In this document: one piece after another, positions 11,272 to 30,290 of the stretch
How the letters are laid out: each line of letters opens with the position of its first letter
Position numbering within the stretch: the first letter of the stretch is position 1
Assembly: GCA_965207735.1 (NCBI GenBank)
Contig: OZ242296.1
Coordinates: 1,952,001 to 2,016,000 of the forward strand
Source of the DNA: Candidatus Versatilivorator sp.
GTDB lineage: Bacteria > Acidobacteriota > Terriglobia > Versatilivoradales > Versatilivoraceae
Direction: 5' to 3'
DNA: 64,000 bases
The notes under the pieces: generated by a model
Told to the model about the DNA's origin: nothing
What the model saw: only the letters and a program-made list of their open reading frames with translations
Database searches by the model: none
Translations under genes and position numbers: made by a program

Positions 11272-13182
11272 TCAAATCCAGATCTCGACCAGGGTCTTGC
11301 CCAACCAGGCGCCTAGATAGGCCAGAGCCAGCATGTAGCCGAATTGCAAAATGGCCAGCCGCCAGCCGCCGGTCTCCCTCCGGACTACGGCCACCGTGGA
11401 CATGCACTGGAGGGCGAAAGCGAAAAAGATCAGCAGGGCGACGGCTGCCCCCGGGGTCAGATCCTGCTTCAGGGCCTGCTGCAAACCAGGGGAGCCTTCG
11501 TCTCCTCCCTCCTCTGCCGCCTCGATTCCGTAAATGGTCCCCAGGGTGCCCACGATCACCTCTCGCGCCGCCAGGGAGGTGATCAACCCGATCCCGATTT
11601 TCCAGTTGAATCCCAGGGGCTCGATGACCGGCTCGACCGCCTGCCCGATCCTGCCGGCCAGGCTCTGGGAAATTTCCGGCGCCTCGCCGTCGGTGCGAGG
11701 CACACTGGCCAGAAACCAGAGCACCACCGTCACCAACAGGATCACGGTGCCGGCGCGCTTGAGAAAGATGAGCGAACGGTCGGCCAGCCGCAAGCCGATG
11801 GACTGCAGTGTCGGCCAGCGGTAGGGAGGAAGCTCCAGGGTGAACGGCAGGGGACTCTGCCGTTTCAGGAGGGTGGACTTCAGCAGCCGGGCGGTCGCCA
11901 CGGCGGCCCCGAAACCCAGCAGGTAAAGCCCGATCATGGCCGCGGCCCGGGTGCCCAGCAACGGCCCCAGCAGAGGCTTTTCCGGCAGGAAGGCGGCGAT
12001 GACCAGAGCATAGACCGGCAGCCTGGCCGAACAGGTCATGAAAGGGGCGATCAGTATGGTGGCCAAACGTTCCCGCCGGCTCTCGATGGTACGAGTGGCC
12101 ATGATGGCCGGAATGGCGCAGGCGTAAGCCGACAACAAAGGGATGAAGGCCTTGCCCTCCAGGCCGACCCGAGCCATGGTGCGGTCGGCGATCACGGCCG
12201 CCCGAGCCAGGTAACCCGAATCCTCCATCACTCCAATCAAAAGAAACAGGAAGAGGATCTGGGGGAGGAACACCAGGACGGAGCCGACCCCGGCCCAAAC
12301 CCCTTCCAGGAGCAGGTCGCGGAACCAGGAATCGGGCAGCAGGGTTCCTATCCACAGGCCCGACGAGGCTATGACGGCTTCGGTGCCGTCCATCAGGGGC
12401 TGGGCCAGCGTGAAAATACTTTGAAAAACAGCCATCACCACCAGGAGAAAAATCAGCGGCCCTCCCAGGGGATGCAGCAACACCGAGTCCAGGCGGCGGG
12501 TCCAAACGGCGGCGGCGGGCGCCTGGTAGCCCGACTGGCCGGTGGCATGGACCGCCCAGCGGCGGCGGCTCACGATATCCTGAAGCACCGGGAGCTCCAG
12601 ACGCTGAGGGGCCGCGGAGCGACCGGAAAGGAACGCACGGATGCCTTCCAAACCCTCACCCCTGGCGGCGCTGGCCTGGACCACCGGAACCCCCAACCGC
12701 TCAGACAGGCGTTGGCCGTCCACCATTCCGCCCCGGCTGCTCAGGTCATCGGACATGTTCAGGACAACCAGGGTTGGGATTCCCAAAGCCAGGATGGGGG
12801 CGGCCAGGCTCAGGTTGCGGTTCAGATTGGTGGAGTCCACCACCACCAGGACGGCGTCCGGAGAAGGCAGGCCCGGCATCTCGCCCAGCAGCACCCCTCG
12901 GGCCACCCGCTCGTCCTCCGATCGGGCCGTGAGGCTGTAAATGCCTGGCAGGTCCACCAGGGTGATCTCCCGGCCGCCCTCCACTCTGACCCTGCCCAGG
13001 CGCTTTTCTACCGTGACCCCAGGATAGTTGGCCACCTTTTGCCGCAGCCCGGTGAGCCGGTTGAAGAGCGTGGATTTTCCGCAATTGGGAGCTCCAACCA
13101 CGGCGACCATGGAGAAGGCGCCAGAGGTCTTTGGCTCAGCGGGCTCGGCTTTGGCGGCCGATGCTGCCTGAAAATCAGACAT
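11272..13182 (-). CDS. feoB: Ferrous iron transport protein B
   Basis: GAPNCGKS, NYPGVTVE and DLPG G-domain motifs; EDSGYLAR and PFMTCSARLP membrane-domain motifs. Confidence 0.95.
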   Translation of the reverse strand: MSDFQAASAAKAEPAEPKTSGAFSMVAVVGAPNCGKSTLFNRLTGLRQKVANYPGVTVEKRLGRVRVEGGREITLVDLPGIYSLTARSEDERVARGVLLGEMPGLPSPDAVLVVVDSTNLNRNLSLAAPILALGIPTLVVLNMSDDLSSRGGMVDGQRLSERLGVPVVQASAARGEGLEGIRAFLSGRSAAPQRLELPVLQDIVSRRRWAVHATGQSGYQAPAAAVWTRRLDSVLLHPLGGPLIFLLVVMAVFQSIFTLAQPLMDGTEAVIASSGLWIGTLLPDSWFRDLLLEGVWAGVGSVLVFLPQILFLFLLIGVMEDSGYLARAAVIADRTMARVGLEGKAFIPLLSAYACAIPAIMATRTIESRRERLATILIAPFMTCSARLPVYALVIAAFLPEKPLLGPLLGTRAAAMIGLYLLGFGAAVATARLLKSTLLKRQSPLPFTLELPPYRWPTLQSIGLRLADRSLIFLKRAGTVILLVTVVLWFLASVPRTDGEAPEISQSLAGRIGQAVEPVIEPLGFNWKIGIGLITSLAAREVIVGTLGTIYGIEAAEEGGDEGSPGLQQALKQDLTPGAAVALLIFFAFALQCMSTVAVVRRETGGWRLAILQFGYMLALAYLGAWLGKTLVEIWI

Positions 13183-13438
13183 TGTCCCCCGTTTCCCCTG
13201 CCTGCGCGGAAGCGCTCAATATCAAGCGCTGGGCAGTAGCGCGTCTGAGAGCGACCTCCGAGCCGTCCACCCGGAAGATCATGGGGTCCCCGCCGGGAGC
13301 CGGCCGCCCGGCGCTCACGCGAACGCCGGGCAGAAAACCCAGTTCCATCAGTCGCTGCGCCACTTCCGCGGAGGTCTCCAGGCGATCCAGGATCCCTTCC
13401 TCTCCTCGCCTCAATTCCGACAGTGTCCTGGCTGACAT
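13175..13438 (-). CDS. feoA: Ferrous iron transport protein A
   Basis: RLMELGFLPG and APGGDPM motifs; overlaps the feoB start; ATG 13438 chosen (alternative start 13465). Confidence 0.9.
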   Translation of the reverse strand: MSARTLSELRRGEEGILDRLETSAEVAQRLMELGFLPGVRVSAGRPAPGGDPMIFRVDGSEVALRRATAQRLILSASAQAGETGDNV

Positions 13439-13530
13439 TCTTTCCCCAACCTCAGCTGCACCCAAGGTGGTTGACCCTTATTTCCCGCAAGACAGGGCCA
13501 TTCTACACCGATTGGGCAAACAGACCCTTC

Positions 13531-14370: not shown

Positions 14371-15963
14371 ATGGTCGAACAAAGAAGAACGAAATCTAAC
14401 ATCAATCCAGGTTCTGACGAGACGACTTGGTTTTGTGTTCGGCGAAATGGCGTCGCCAAGCACCGCGGATGGATCAATGAGGTTCCGCTTGATGATCTGC
14501 CACGGCATGTAGGCGCGCGGCGCGGGGATGTCGTCGAGGTCTGCGTCGGCCACGAATTCCGTCCCGTTGAACCGGGTCGGTTTTCCAAGGTGTTTTGCGA
14601 GCGGACCCGCGGCCTTGTGGGAATGGAGATCGCATTTGACGGCGAGGTTTACCGCGCCGCACCAACATGGATGCTCGCGACCAACCGGAGGTTCCAGCGT
14701 GTGCTGGATCGGTTTCTAAAAAAGCACGACGCAACCGCTGCCGAGTTCACCGCCTACGGCAGCCTGCAGGCTTTTTCGGCGCGGCAGTTTCTGCTATCCC
14801 ACGGCGACGAAGGTAGCGTGACCGAACTGTTTCGCGGTGCGCCGCTGGTTTCGCCGGCACCATCCGCGGGTGAAGATCGCGCTGCCGATCTGGCTCGAGG
14901 CATAGAGCAGTGGATGCGCGTTAATCTCTCGCCTGACGGCGCGCTGCCCTACAAATACTGGCCGAGCCGGGGGGTGGATTCGCCGGCGGACAACGCCATT
15001 CGTCGCTTCTTGGCTTCATTGTCTCTCGCCCGACTGGGGGAACTCCGTCACGACGCCGCGATCCGCGAGGCGGCTCGCCGCAACCTACGCTTCAATTTAA
15101 GGCGCTATTTCCGCAATATCGGTGAAGGCCGGGGGGCCATTGTCGAACCCACCGGGGCCAAGCTGGGCGCCGCCGCCATCGCCGCATTGGCCATCCTGGA
15201 GAGCCCGGCGTCGAGTGAGTTTCTCCCCGAATTGCACATGTTGACGGCCGGCGTCAATTCGCTCGCAGACAAGGACCGAGGGTTCCGAACGTTTTACTTT
15301 CCACCTGAGCGCGACGGTGACAACTGGAATTTCTATTCCGGTGAAGCGCTCTTGTTCTGGGCCGAGGCCACCCGGCGAGGAACGAGATCGGCACCGACGT
15401 TGGAACGTTGCGCGGCAACCTTCGCCTGTTGCCGCAATCGGCACTACCGAGCCAGAAACCCCGCTTTCATTCCGTGGCACACGCAAGCATGTGCGTCCTT
15501 ATATAAACAGACGGGACGGAGCGAGTTTGCCGACTTTGCACTCGAAGCCAACGACTGGCTTCTGTCCATGCAGCAGTGGGACCGTTGGCCGGGGCTGCCA
15601 CCGGATCTTTGGGGCCGCTTCTACGATCCATTGCGACCCGAGTTCGGCCCACCGCACGCGGCTTCTACCGGGGCGTATCTTGAGGGACTCGCAGATGCCA
15701 TGACGTTGGCCCGCGAGATCGGCGATCAAGCCCGCACGGCCGTCTACGAACGCGCGATTGCGCGTGGATTGCGGTCCCTGCGGCAACTGCAGTTCCGCGG
15801 TCCGCACGACGCCTTCTACCTTTCGAGACGGGAGCGCGTGATCGGGGCACTCCGGACCGAGGCCTACGACAACGCGGTTCGTATCGACTCGGCTTCACAC
15901 GCGCTGGCCGCGGCCGTCAAGGTACTGGAGCAAGGACTTCAGTCAACGGGCGGAAGCACGTAG
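14371..15963 (+). CDS. Hypothetical protein, probable (alpha/alpha)-toroid / six-hairpin-like C-terminal domain
   Basis: 530-aa ORF with repeated helical segments (KLGAAAIAALAI, FYSGEALLFW, PWHTQA, STGAYLEGL, VRIDSASHAL); the fold is inferred. Confidence 0.6.
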   Translation: MVEQRRTKSNINPGSDETTWFCVRRNGVAKHRGWINEVPLDDLPRHVGARRGDVVEVCVGHEFRPVEPGRFSKVFCERTRGLVGMEIAFDGEVYRAAPTWMLATNRRFQRVLDRFLKKHDATAAEFTAYGSLQAFSARQFLLSHGDEGSVTELFRGAPLVSPAPSAGEDRAADLARGIEQWMRVNLSPDGALPYKYWPSRGVDSPADNAIRRFLASLSLARLGELRHDAAIREAARRNLRFNLRRYFRNIGEGRGAIVEPTGAKLGAAAIAALAILESPASSEFLPELHMLTAGVNSLADKDRGFRTFYFPPERDGDNWNFYSGEALLFWAEATRRGTRSAPTLERCAATFACCRNRHYRARNPAFIPWHTQACASLYKQTGRSEFADFALEANDWLLSMQQWDRWPGLPPDLWGRFYDPLRPEFGPPHAASTGAYLEGLADAMTLAREIGDQARTAVYERAIARGLRSLRQLQFRGPHDAFYLSRRERVIGALRTEAYDNAVRIDSASHALAAAVKVLEQGLQSTGGST

Positions 15964-16592
15964 TATCCGCGACCGGGCGGGGGCAAAACGTCGAAAATCA
16001 GATGCACACGGGGTTCATCGGAGGTATTGCGGGCCTCGTGCCCGGCTTTGTTGTTGAACACCCACAACTCACCCTCCCGCATCACTACGGATTCACCCCC
16101 CGCGGTCAGTGGGCTGCCTTCCGGACTCTTTATTGTGAGGTGGAATCGATCGCGGATGCGGTAGTAAGCCCCGGCGTCAACGTGCGGGCGAACCCACCCA
16201 TGTGGCTGCAGCGCAACCAGAGTGGCCCGCCCGAGCTCGCCGCCATGAAGGTCGGCGATCCATTGACAGAACGCCAACGCGCATGGAAACCTGGTAGAGA
16301 TTCGCGTGACCCGACTCGCGTGAACATCGTTGGCGTTGCGCACCCCGGGTGGTAGGGGTTTCTTGGCGACGCGCAGGAAGATGTTCTGGGTGTCGCGCTG
16401 GCACCGGACCTTGCGTTGGCGACTCGTGTCGACCAGCCACATCTCCGGTCTCCCGGCAAGCTCCGAGCAAATTGGCGCGACATCAATGCCCTCCGCGATT
16501 TTTCTAAAAGGCGAACCATTCGAGAGGGTTGTCGGATCTGGCGTTACACTTTCGTAGCCGGCCCACTGGGCTGCCGTCGTCGACGCACCCAT
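15939..16592 (-). CDS. Aspartyl/asparaginyl beta-hydroxylase family 2OG-Fe(II) oxygenase
   Basis: ATG 16592 with GGGAGG RBS; RPHVD (HxD), RFHL, WVFNNKAGHEARN and PRVHLIFD motifs typical of the Asp_Arg_Hydrox family. Confidence 0.8.
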   Translation of the reverse strand: MGASTTAAQWAGYESVTPDPTTLSNGSPFRKIAEGIDVAPICSELAGRPEMWLVDTSRQRKVRCQRDTQNIFLRVAKKPLPPGVRNANDVHASRVTRISTRFPCALAFCQWIADLHGGELGRATLVALQPHGWVRPHVDAGAYYRIRDRFHLTIKSPEGSPLTAGGESVVMREGELWVFNNKAGHEARNTSDEPRVHLIFDVLPPPGRGYYVLPPVD

Positions 16593-16784
16593 GGTTTTCC
16601 TCCCTACATTCCTAGTACAGACACCGTTCAAAGAGTCCGTTTCGTTGGGCCCCAGTGGCAATTGACGCAGCAAGCAAAATCCCAGCCAACCTCTCGGGCC
16701 GCAGTGCTTAACTTGTACAAACCTCGGCATGCGTTGGACCGATCGGCCCTTCTGTCCCCGGCCGTTCCGACAATGGTTCCGTAG

Positions 16785-19043
16785 CTAGTCGTCGTCATCA
16801 TCATCGTCGTCGTCATCATCATCGTCGTCGTCATCGTCGTCGTCATCATCATCGTCGTCGTCGTCATCATCATCGCCGTCGCCGTCGCCGTCCCCGTCGC
16901 CATCCCCGTCACCATCGCCATCCCCGTCGCCATCACCGTCGCCATCGCCATCACCATCCCCGTCACCATCCCCGTCACCATCCCCGTCACCATCGCCATC
17001 ACCGTCCCCGTCACCATCCCCGTCGCCGTCACCATCGCCATCGCCGTCACCATCGCCATCGCCATCGCCGTCACCATCGCCATCGCCGTCACCATCGCCG
17101 TCACCATCGCCGTCACCATCGCCGTCACCATCCCCGTCGCCGTCACCATCGCCATCGCCGTCACCATCCCCGTCACCATCGCCATCCCCGTCGCCGTCCC
17201 CGTCGCCATCACCATCGCCGTCACCATCGCCGTCCCCATCGCCGTCCCCGTCACCATCCCCGTCGCCATCACCGTCGCCATCACCGTCGCCGCCGTTGTT
17301 TCCACCACTCCTACCTCCTCCGGACGGGGGCTTGGGTGGCAGTACGGCCTCAGGTGGAGTCGGCGGGGGGGGCGGTGGGGGGGGAGTGGGCGCACGCTCG
17401 GAGCTTTCCGAAATCACCTCCGGCAATGTCAATACGGTGCTGTTTGCGACATCCACTTCCAAGGCCACGGCGGTAAACAATCCCTCTCCCGCCATGGCGC
17501 AGTGTACCAACCCCAGGAACTCCGAGGTGTCGGTCATGGTGAAGGCGTCTTGGATGGACCAGGATGTCTGCCCGTTGGCCAACAGAGGAACCGGAATGGA
17601 ATCGAGCAGTACGCCCTCGTTCATCAAGTCGCACCGCAGCAGCACCGGACTCGCTTCCAGGTTATGGAGCGCGATGCCGGTGGTGGCGCCTCCTTTCCGG
17701 CGGCGTACCGGGAAGAGTGTGTTGTTAACGGGTAACCCGGCGTCTACCCAGGCCACTCCGAAGTCGGGGTGCTCGAAGCCGAGCATCGCGCCGATCCGAC
17801 CCTCCGAAACCACCCTGGCCGATCCCGTCACCAACTCCCCTCGGCCGTGAGTCGAGATCACGATGACTCCCAGAGGCTCCATCTCCGTCTGAACCGTAAG
17901 AGCGCCGTCCTCCCTGATCTCCAGACCGCCCGCGATGTCCACCAACCCATCAGGGGCAATCGGACTCCCTTGCGGGTCGTAGAAATAGATAGCCGGAAGG
18001 CTCGGAGGGACGGGCGCGTGAAAGGAAGTGAGGGGAGGGCCGCTCGGCCGTGTCTCCGTGTTCAGGAAGACCAAGTGGGTGATCCAATCCCCGTTGGCGA
18101 TATGAGGGAAATCCAGAATAGTCTGGCCGAGAAAATCTCCTGTATGGTCCAAGGGCACCACAGACAACGTGTTGAAGATGCGCTGACCGGGATCAATCTC
18201 CACGGCGATTGCGCTGAACCGACCCTCATTTGGCGCGCTACAGCGCACCGATCCCAGAAAGTCCGAGGTGTCGGTCGCGGTGAACACGTCTTCGATGAGC
18301 CACGAGGTCTGGCCGTTGGGCGCCAGGGGGATCTCCGCCTCTTCCAGCGTGGCGCCTCCGCTCATCAATTGACAATTCAGCGCAATCGCTTCCTCTCCCA
18401 GGTTGTGGAGGGCCGCCGCCGTGCTGACACCCTCCGCTTGGCGGCGCGCCAGAAAGAGTGCATCCTGAAGGGGTCGGCCGGCGGCAACCTCGGTGACCCC
18501 GACGTCCGGGATACTGTAGCGCACCAGTCCGCCAATGGGGCCGTTCGAGACCGCTCGCACCGATCCCGATACCAGCTTCCCTCGCCCGTGGGTTGTTATG
18601 GTGAGTTTGCCGAAGGGTTCCAATTCCGTCCGAACTGCCAGGCTGCCGTCCGCCCGGTTCTCCAGATCGCCCGTCACGTCCACTAACGACCCGGGGGCAA
18701 TGAGATAGCCCCCCCGATCGTAAAAGTAGACTGCGGGCCGAATCGGATAGTCGGCCACATTCACCAGGACCAGATCGGAAGTGGTGCCGGTCCCGTTGGC
18801 GAAATGTGTGAATTCCAGAGTGTGCTCGTCCTGAGTGGCTGCGGTCCCTCCGGAGGGGGCGCCAACAGCGGCGAACACGACCAGGAACCGGGCAAACGCA
18901 TGGAGCCCTACCCGGCGCAATGGCCGTGAAGGGGAAGGCCGGGCTCTTGTCCTCGCCTCGAACCTGAGGGTCCCGGACAAAACCCTGAACAACGCGATCG
19001 GGGCTGTGTCAATCCGTATTCCCAAGGATTCTCGTCGAATCAT
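16785..19043 (-). CDS. Probable secreted protein: two ~230-aa repeated domains, Pro-rich linker, (GD)n and poly-Asp tail
   Basis: Signal-like [20 protein letters not shown]; duplicated LxFxHxANG...P(A)xYFYD...THGRG(K/E)LV(S/T)GS...LHNL...ANGQTSW modules; start uncertain. Confidence 0.85.
16788..17291 (-). repeat. Coding tandem repeat: ~70 Gly-Asp dipeptides ending in 29 consecutive Asp
   Basis: 16875-17291 alternates GGN and GAY codons; 16788-16874 is all GAY; synonymous codons are mixed. Confidence 0.95.
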
Positions 19044-19259: not shown

Positions 19260-19697
19260 TTATGCCACTTTGCCTTGGGCAATTCTGACTTTACCCAGGA
19301 GCTTGGCCATCCGCTCCACGTCGTCCTGCTCGGCAATGATCTGGTCTTCCAGCAGGTAGGCCGTGGGTTGGTGGCCGCAGACGTCCCTGGCCAGGCTGTA
19401 GGTTTCCACGGCTTGGGTTTCCAGCTCCAGGTCCATCTCCAACATCTCGGTCAGGTCGGTGGACTGGTGGACCTCTCCGACCTCGATGGTCGGGACACCG
19501 CCAAGGTAGACGATCTTCTCCCCCCAGGTCTTGGCATGGGTGAGGGCTTCCTCCGCCTGCTTGGTGAACAGCTCTTCGAATACCTCCCTGTCCGGACCCG
19601 TCAGGAGCATGCTGTGCTGGTTGTATTGGACTACAGCCGTGTACTCCAGGGAAACGGCTCGGTTGAGGACTTCGATCAGTTTGTCGTGATTTGCCAT
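19260..19697 (-). CDS. Ferritin-like / bacterioferritin-family protein
   Basis: ATG 19697 (MANHDKLIEVLNRAVSLEY); EEALTHA, LGGVP and DLELETQA ferroxidase-type pattern. Confidence 0.8.
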   Translation of the reverse strand: MANHDKLIEVLNRAVSLEYTAVVQYNQHSMLLTGPDREVFEELFTKQAEEALTHAKTWGEKIVYLGGVPTIEVGEVHQSTDLTEMLEMDLELETQAVETYSLARDVCGHQPTAYLLEDQIIAEQDDVERMAKLLGKVRIAQGKVA

Positions 19698-19897
19698 GGG
19701 TGCGGCACCCCCGTTTGGATTTTCAGACTGCCCGGCTGCCGACGATCCTCCGGTGGTGCAGGCGGCGCCGAGTCGGTCGATGAGCACTGGAACGAATGTT
19801 TTCGGGCTGACTGACTCGACCGCCAGCCAAATTCAGAATAGCCGGAACACCACCGCAAGTCAACCCTTAAGTTATTGAAAACAAAACCTTTATAGAA

Positions 19898-30031: not shown

Positions 30032-30039
30032 GGGTAGCA

Positions 30040-30290
30040 GTGGAGAGTGGAGAGTGAAGAGTGGAGAGTGATTCGGTTAACGGGTTTGGAATTGTCCATC
30101 GATTTCAGCCAGGGGATCAATATCCGATACGACCCTGACGACGGCATATGTTGCTTTCTTGCTCCTAAAACTCTCCACCAACACTCTTTACTTCGAGCCG
30201 TGAGAGTGATAGGGCGATCGTCTACAAAACTCTCCACTCTCCACTTTCCATTCATCATTCATCACTCATCATTCATCATTCATCATTCAC
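30040..30290. repeat. Heptamer tandem repeats (GTGGAGA)n, inverted (CTCTCCA)n and (TTCATCA)n between rplY and pth
   Basis: GTGGAGAGTGGAGAGTG at 30040-30070, its reverse complement at 30229-30245, then about 6 TTCATCA-like units; a related tract lies at 36905-36935. Confidence 0.8.

Follow-up and report, generated by a model that had tools for sequence, protein, structure and literature searches.

A toroid-fold protein and an AspH-family oxygenase travel in a cassette with carriers of long Gly-Asp tracts, their candidate substrates

Within the 64,000-nucleotide stretch of Candidatus Versatilivorator sp. DNA analysed here (contig OZ242296.1; hereafter the window), three neighbouring genes encode a protein with an (alpha/alpha)6 toroid fold, a putative Fe(II)/2-oxoglutarate (2OG) oxygenase and a carrier protein that ends in a long Gly-Asp (GD) tract. 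These genes travel as a cassette, as seen in their linkage, in the swapping of carrier scaffolds under a constant tract, in two kinds of gene fusion, and in the folds and conserved residues of the two enzymes. The system is real and conserved, and apparently undescribed. Comparison of sequences leads us to favour, on balance, a reading in which the toroid acts on the Asp of stalks that alternate a small residue with Asp, and in which a Gly-Asp branch adds beta-hydroxylation to give a metal-binding polymer at the cell surface. We hold with good confidence that the Xaa-Asp tract is the target of the enzymes, and think it rather probable that the oxygenase makes beta-hydroxy-Asp. The features of the locus are as follows.

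14371..15963, + strand: toroid protein, 530 aa, predicted core enzyme (AlphaFold2 model, hhalign, ratio of non-synonymous to synonymous substitution rates (dN/dS))
15939..16592, - strand: Fe(II)/2OG oxygenase (AspH/proline-hydroxylase family), 217 aa, own ribosome-binding site
16785..19043, - strand: carrier protein, 752 aa, signal-like N-terminus, predicted substrate
16788..16874, - strand: terminal Asp29 run, not conserved in all carriers
16872..17291, - strand: (Gly-Asp)70 tract, mixed synonymous codons
17328..17390, - strand: Pro-rich linker
17409..18833, - strand: scaffold of an unnamed repeated 'HFANG' domain, an interchangeable part of the system

As described in an earlier note on this DNA, the carrier open reading frame (ORF) has a hydrophobic, signal-like N-terminal stretch, a Pro-rich linker, exactly 70 GD dipeptides (aa 585-724; about 70 in that note) and 29 Asp in a row at the C-terminus, so that the tail, put there at roughly 100 Asp, holds 98. 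The oxygenase gene (hereafter the hydroxylase), placed by the note about 190 bp downstream with its own ribosome-binding site, starts at an ATG at 16592, preceded by GGAGG and lying 192 nt past the carrier stop; the listed 263-aa ORF begins too early and the 217-aa form is preferred. Its 25-bp overlap with the convergent 530-aa ORF was likewise found. Across the 5.26-Mb genome, the carrier contains the only tract of at least six GD units and the only run of at least eight Asp. Six different hexamers encode the (GD)70 tract and none recurs more than three times in a row, so that it is not a plain microsatellite; such codon mixing, seen in the window and at most loci, together with a dN/dS of ~0.2, ruled out a microsatellite or assembly artefact. 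For the window hydroxylase and toroid, dN/dS was 0.19-0.26 against two relatives. The contigs of four runs yielded strain variants spanning all three genes (the repeat was skipped), and the listed holders of the locus included no RNA dataset from which expression could be read. The scaffold domain at 17409-18833, for which there is no Pfam model, has 1426 homologues and is combined with Fn3, LRR or Calx-beta domains in surface proteins; none of 120 listed homologues contained four or more GD units. NCBIfam Sdr/Clf models match the carrier tail weakly.

Linkage was counted from the toroid in four sets of loci: 54 close loci from a GTDB scan, 42 close metagenome loci, 38 distant loci and 21 far loci. 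Among the 54 GTDB loci, which span Acidobacteriota, Pseudomonadota, Gemmatimonadota, Chloroflexota and Binatota, a hydroxylase was found at 52, a tract of at least five GD units at 50 and one of at least ten at 46. Thus the enzymes do not usually occur without an acidic-repeat protein; the opposite outcome is the one that the earlier note had named as refuting its idea. As for the four loci without a tract, L029 has a broken toroid, with the hydroxylase absent at the locus and a GD tract absent genome-wide; L055 is a remnant in a genome whose intact cassette lies elsewhere (L206); L052 is a 3.6-kb contig; and for L030 the tract sits on a Calx-beta-type surface protein ~1.2 Mb off. The carriers at the 54 loci are mostly exported and belong to at least five unrelated scaffold types, including the window's domain (4/54 loci), RTX repeats, a bare signal plus tract, and lipoproteins with lectin or TbpB-like domains; gene order and strand differ too. 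The Asp run is absent from many carriers, and the Xaa-Asp dipeptide tract is the conserved element. A tract was present at 31 of the 42 close metagenome loci, and many of these contigs terminate in the tract. As the toroid loci are not independent of each other, the case rests on the diversity of scaffolds and on the reverse test below, not on a p-value. Many of the relatives carry names that we take to be those of putative marine sponge symbionts.

In the reverse direction, 401 genomes of the window's phylum were surveyed: seven had a tract of at least ten GD units and six had a close toroid. All six toroid genomes were among the seven, with the three genes adjacent in each, and the seventh tract was a near-pure GGCGAT microsatellite in a genome with no close toroid. 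A second survey took in 401 genomes of the phylum to which an alphaproteobacterial carrier belongs and found tracts of this length in two, the centre genome and G799, in which an autotransporter with (GD)87 is followed 45 nt on by a far toroid homologue. Chance adjacency was ruled out by both phylum surveys.

A number of loci depart from the common layout. At L049:11572-14832, a two-gene insertion of IS21-type appearance splits the hydroxylase gene while tract and toroid persist. In L058:47-286 and L062 (G003, same genus), a hydroxylase remnant with stops adjoins a DinB gene, a toroid was not found, and the carrier orthologue begins a Gly-Asp-Glu tail at the contig end; in L144, a Gly-Asp-Glu tail adjoins intact-looking enzymes. 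At L175:10107-11952, a GD carrier with a Gly-Ala tail lies by a PqqD-family protein and a 279-aa unknown, with the toroid present and the hydroxylase absent.

The three parts are also joined physically. In nine loci, all of one Thermoanaerobaculia/Multivorans clade and counted as one event, the tract continues in frame into the hydroxylase and an internal start is not conserved. Toroid and hydroxylase form a single chain in 7 of the 21 long homologues that were scanned (of 150 listed) and in 7 of the 38 distant loci, five of them with a GD protein upstream and two with less than 300 bp of upstream DNA. Pairwise identities of toroid and hydroxylase correlate (Mantel r 0.83, 53 loci), which shows co-inheritance only. 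These results bear on the idea that the tract is an unmodified Ca-binding spacer, with the enzymes acting on a small molecule, lipid or polysaccharide of the same surface process. Bacterial AspH-family members do act on lipids and free amino acids, most fold relatives of the toroid act on sugars, and PMC5588039 discusses a Ca-binding adhesin role for BapA of Paracoccus denitrificans, whose Asp-Ala repeats number 891. This explanation is nevertheless improbable, as it leaves unaccounted for both the in-frame tract-hydroxylase fusion and the grafting of tracts onto unrelated scaffolds only next to the enzymes, and such tracts are nearly absent without a toroid in 802 genome slots.

The hydroxylase matches PF05118 (E 1e-17; 64.8 bits versus a curated cut-off of 22.6). 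H137-x-D139...H185 and R195 are invariant in 54 of 54 aligned hydroxylases, as are six more basic residues; H137, D139 and H185 would serve as Fe ligands and R195 as the 2OG-binding Arg. Its model (predicted local distance difference test score (pLDDT) 88.8) has a double-stranded beta-helix fold that matches proline cis-4-hydroxylase, a nucleoside-antibiotic beta-hydroxylase and AspH. The equivalog models for LpxO and OlsC fell short of their cut-offs (17.9 versus 500 and 14.5 versus 450 bits, respectively). In L057 and P0391-P0395, close hydroxylase homologues (~49%) lack a toroid and are joined to a PRTase-like domain and to a PQQ-type beta-propeller.

For the 530-aa protein, no match was found in Pfam (E<=0.1), NCBIfam or the sequences of the Protein Data Bank. 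Its AlphaFold2 model (pLDDT 95.4; predicted template modelling score 0.94) bears out the toroid fold suggested in the earlier note from helical repeats: a degenerate AMMECR1-like N-terminal alpha/beta domain (~aa 19-155) precedes a six-hairpin (alpha/alpha)6 barrel (aa 160-527), an assignment with which Foldseek concurs. The best fold match was cellobiose 2-epimerase (Z 28.4, root-mean-square deviation (rmsd) 3.0, 319 aligned), near-tied with GH76 (Z 28.3, rmsd 2.8, 301 aligned), these two at 9-11% identity. No Pfam match at E<=0.1 was obtained for the AGE/cellobiose epimerase, GH76 or GH88 families, and the fold scores are tied across them. The conserved residues R211, Y322, E325, W369, R504, D506 and H510 lie at or near the starts of alternate helices, and, going by the fold, they would line a central pocket. 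The family comprises 2014 cluster representatives and was not found in viral contigs.

The N-terminal domain was traced through a protein with two AMMECR1 domains and a toroid (L124), which hhalign aligned to the window toroid at 99.8%. The RGChG motif of AMMECR1 (PF01871; motif as given in the accessible text of PMC2034487), with its catalytic Cys, is lost in the toroid, whose domain aligned to the L124 AMMECR1 reads RGW. The same architecture occurs in L123:1-3566, directly before a radical SAM gene. We take this gene to resemble methyltransferases of ribosomally made peptides with post-translational modifications (RiPPs), which suggests that L123 and L124 are a RiPP-like branch of the toroid family.

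Toroids also accompany tracts where this hydroxylase is missing. Among the 38 distant loci, tract and toroid occur without a hydroxylase in six (L168, L175, L186, L188, L189, L193). A comparison of the G799 toroid with plasmid records returned 55, labelled 'poly(glycerol-phosphate) alpha-glucosyltransferase', 'Mur ligase family' or hypothetical; the glucosyltransferase (TagE) label had no profile support in the one homologue scanned. The far set of 21 consists of nine of these records and 12 regions cut from the second survey. Homology of the far toroids to the window toroid (hhalign 97.7%, E 2e-12; ~20% identity) is accompanied by retention of R211, Y322-x-G-E325 and R504-x-D506-x3-H510, within the motifs YN..RH, [FY]Y.GEA and R.D...H. 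An Xaa-Asp tract adjoins the far toroid in five of the 12 survey regions and in seven of the nine plasmid records, the latter being (SD/AD)135 in Staphylococcus aureus, (AD/SD)602 in S. simulans, (AD)171 in Agrobacterium, (AD)159 in Sulfitobacter, (SD)122 in Klebsiella aerogenes and (AD/SD)81 in Enterococcus raffinosus, while in Listeria monocytogenes an LPXTG protein with (AD)134, which we take to be the product of lmo1799, lies 71 nt before the toroid homologue. No such tract was found beside the far toroid in the plasmid records of Acinetobacter baumannii and Variovorax. Overall, tracts of 37-602 Xaa-Asp units (Xaa = Gly, Ala or Ser) occur in 12 of the 21 far loci, and in these only Asp is constant. 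The hydroxylase profile matched none of the 21, a result that a remote oxygenase could escape.

These observations reverse the order of roles in the earlier note. Its proposal of a three-gene system with the tract as likely substrate is strongly supported by co-occurrence, scaffold swapping and the fusions; its suggestion that the toroid tailors hydroxy-Asp afterwards is not, because a toroid found with tracts that lack this hydroxylase cannot depend on hydroxy-Asp. A scheme in which hydroxylation comes first and the toroid then tailors beta-hydroxy-Asp, for example by dehydration or C-beta epimerisation, could draw on the toroid-hydroxylase fusions and on the carboxylate-adjacent acid-base chemistry known in uronic-acid enzymes of the fold (GH88 matches). 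We regard it as highly improbable given the six distant GD loci and 12 far tract loci in which toroid and tract occur without this hydroxylase, an unrelated hydroxylase elsewhere being possible in these. Polar residues of the pocket (Arg, Tyr, Glu, Asp, His) are retained at ~20% identity, as in an active site, and this also makes it distinctly unlikely that the toroid lacks catalytic activity and serves long polyanionic tracts as a chaperone or export adaptor, with the oxygenase alone modifying them, a role that would suit its basic pI, its AMMECR1-like domain without the motif cysteine and the use of the helical tetratricopeptide repeat (TPR) domain of AspH in substrate binding. Both enzymes are basic (pI 9.3 and 9.0).

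Other toroid homologues stand in different company. Some are fused to or lie beside MurF-like ligase, PGA_cap, ATP-grasp or YkuD genes (L167-L169, L171, L176, L192-L194; P0248, P0265, P0288, P0337, P0301, P0331, P0378, P0387), with GD tracts at contig edges in L168, L171 and L193. At L235:6864-13919, four tandem toroid genes lie by a large divergent gene, maybe for a cyanophycin-synthetase-like ligase, without an Xaa-Asp tract. An exported branch (L195-L197, L200, L201, L203, L204, L182, L183) has lipoprotein-like signals and no tract nearby. It is conceivable that the MurF-like/ATP-grasp branch ligates amino acids to tract carboxylates in the manner of cyanophycin, in which Arg side chains are borne by an Asp backbone (PMC9427784, accessible text). 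More generally, the toroid might attach a sugar, amine or amino acid to Asp side chains, alone or with Mur-ligase or ATP-grasp partners, or cross-link the stalk to the envelope; the fusions and flanking domains just listed favour this, as does the presence of GH76 proteins, including Dfg5, among the top fold matches. Such attachment is nonetheless fairly unlikely: no gene supplying a donor and no ligase recurs across the 54 close loci, GH76's catalytic DD pair is not kept in the toroid, and the toroid stands alone in Listeria and in several GD loci.

Returning to the reading we favour, the toroid would be the core enzyme, acting on Asp in (Gly/Ala/Ser-Asp)n tracts, since Xaa varies while Asp is constant. 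The oxygenase would add beta-hydroxyl groups in the Gly-Asp branch only, and the product would be a protease-resistant polyanionic stalk whose alpha-hydroxy-carboxylate groups could bind Ca or Fe at the cell surface. As the minimal cassette shows neither a cofactor motif nor a donor gene, the simplest chemistry is a rearrangement. Succinimide forms most readily at Asp-Gly, Asp-Ser and Asp-Ala bonds, and the closest folds include epimerases; our single best guess, a doubtful one, is therefore that the toroid performs cofactor-free acid-base chemistry on Asp, either isoAsp isomerisation or D-Asp epimerisation, before export. In its broadest form, which we offer tentatively as a whole, one toroid family would rewrite the backbone or stereochemistry of hundreds of Asp in (Gly/Ala/Ser-Asp)n surface stalks to yield a non-natural polyanion, over a wide range that runs from uncultured acidobacteria to the adhesins of Listeria, Staphylococcus, Klebsiella and Agrobacterium. 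Asp beta-hydroxylase, Mur ligase, PGA_cap and ATP-grasp units would plug in as tailoring modules, and the present branch would make poly(Gly-beta-hydroxy-Asp).

Several points weigh against this reading. The case for modification is wholly comparative. A tract of at least five GD units was missing from 27 of the 38 distant loci, among them some where the flanks covered the full 17 kb, and nine of the 21 far loci had no tract, so the family probably also has other or elsewhere-encoded substrates; one close locus and a congener have a Gly-Asp-Glu-type acidic tail in place of GD. The fold matches of the toroid (hydrolases, epimerases, cyclases, transglycosidases) are tied in Z at 7-16% identity, and the fold therefore does not fix the chemistry. 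Among the nearest solved relatives of the hydroxylase are enzymes that hydroxylate free proline or a nucleoside antibiotic, and some homologues that are 49% identical are fused to other domains, with a toroid not found. The compartments do not agree either: window toroid and hydroxylase have no signal peptide, and an N-terminal hydrophobic stretch was seen in none of 120 close toroids versus 53 of 63 carriers. Either modification would thus come before export, or the enzymes would arrive at the envelope by another route. As to export by twin-arginine translocation, twin-Arg was only modestly enriched (18/53 versus 7/44). Hydrophobic N-terminal stretches do occur in 50 of 150 distant toroids, and in the fusion clade the hydroxylase is preceded by a lipoprotein-like signal.

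Around the cassette, a fourth core gene was considered and rejected, the sole recurrent neighbour being a LuxR-like membrane regulator (13-16 loci, mostly Pseudomonadota). Absence from 13 of 13 congeners pointed to cross-phylum transfer, which was not shown, since the toroid tree needs no more than four phylum changes, the lowest possible number. A ferritin-family gene flanks the cassette in three lineages (the window; L034/L054; L008/L010/L014/L049), in a neighbourhood that in the window (19263-19787 and 11272-13465) includes FeoAB; at the gammaproteobacterial loci a Fur-like box accompanies bfd and a TonB receptor. The window itself yielded no such box, the best candidates at the three genes having 8-10 mismatches to the consensus; with the ferritin flank absent in the other 48 of 54 loci, iron regulation was set aside as a weak hint. 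Elsewhere in the window, two 7-bp tandem repeats lie close together (AGTGGAG x4.6 at 30039-30070 and CATTCAT x5.9 at 30249-30289) and may be phase-variable tracts.

The toroid-tract link gives an uncharacterised enzyme family a concrete, cheaply synthesised candidate substrate. The function of the Xaa-Asp stalks of BapA and Lmo1799 is unexplained, and many genes adjoining such stalks are unannotated or labelled glucosyltransferase or Mur ligase. If the favoured reading is true, a fold associated chiefly with sugars and terpenes would gain peptide-Asp chemistry. Beta-hydroxy-Asp is a metal-binding unit in siderophores, and the hydroxylase branch would then make a gene-encoded polymer of this unit, of interest for biominerals and biomaterials.

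A description of the cassette or of the toroid-tract link was not found in the literature, searched as main texts and with subscription journals poorly covered, and the known systems each share part of it. SdgA and SdgB modify the SD-repeat proteins of staphylococci and are GT-B glycosyltransferases acting on Ser. In the staphylococcal Sdr/Clf system, as in the cassette, a surface protein bears a long Xaa-Asp stalk and an enzyme dedicated to it is encoded close by; the enzymes here are an alpha/alpha toroid and an oxygenase, in place of the GT-B fold of SdgA/SdgB or TagE, and the tract is free of Ser, with Asp constant. Human AspH shares the PF05118 family and fold, but the window hydroxylase has no TPR domain, is ~20% identical and carries an HxD...H motif, and its substrate would be a low-complexity tract where that of AspH is an epidermal growth factor domain. 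Six-hairpin enzymes (cellobiose/GlcNAc 2-epimerases, GH76, GH88, class II terpene cyclases) share the fold of the toroid (Z 25-28, rmsd ~3 A, ~300 residues) and differ in having 7-16% identity and no sequence-level match, the toroid adding an AMMECR1-like domain and a peptide-repeat context. The same class of tract is found in BapA, which migrates anomalously on gels and for which the authors were unable to exclude modification (PMC5588039), and in Listeria Lmo1799, with 226 Ala-Asp (PMC8687577); the accessible texts describe a partner enzyme for neither. Bacterial beta-hydroxylase neighbourhoods in PMC2938197 place an oxygenase by a secreted Gly-rich or collagen-like protein, its proposed substrate, but the accessible part names sulfotransferases and PAPS (3'-phosphoadenosine 5'-phosphosulfate) synthetases and not a toroid or Xaa-Asp tracts, the word 'toroid' being absent from the main text. 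As for RiPP clusters, no leader, protease or transporter recurs at our loci, and the carriers range from <150 to >1800 aa on unrelated scaffolds. The RiPP beta-hydroxylases DurX/CinX and PoyI resemble the proposed activity in that they use Fe/2OG to beta-hydroxylate Asp or Asn within a gene-encoded peptide, and, in the accessible text of PMC10373908, they act on one or a few sites of a short leader-core peptide, compared with up to ~100 candidate sites in a large exported protein here. DurX requires a Gly next to the Asp that it hydroxylates (PMC10373908), which fits a beta-hydroxylation confined to the Gly-Asp branch.

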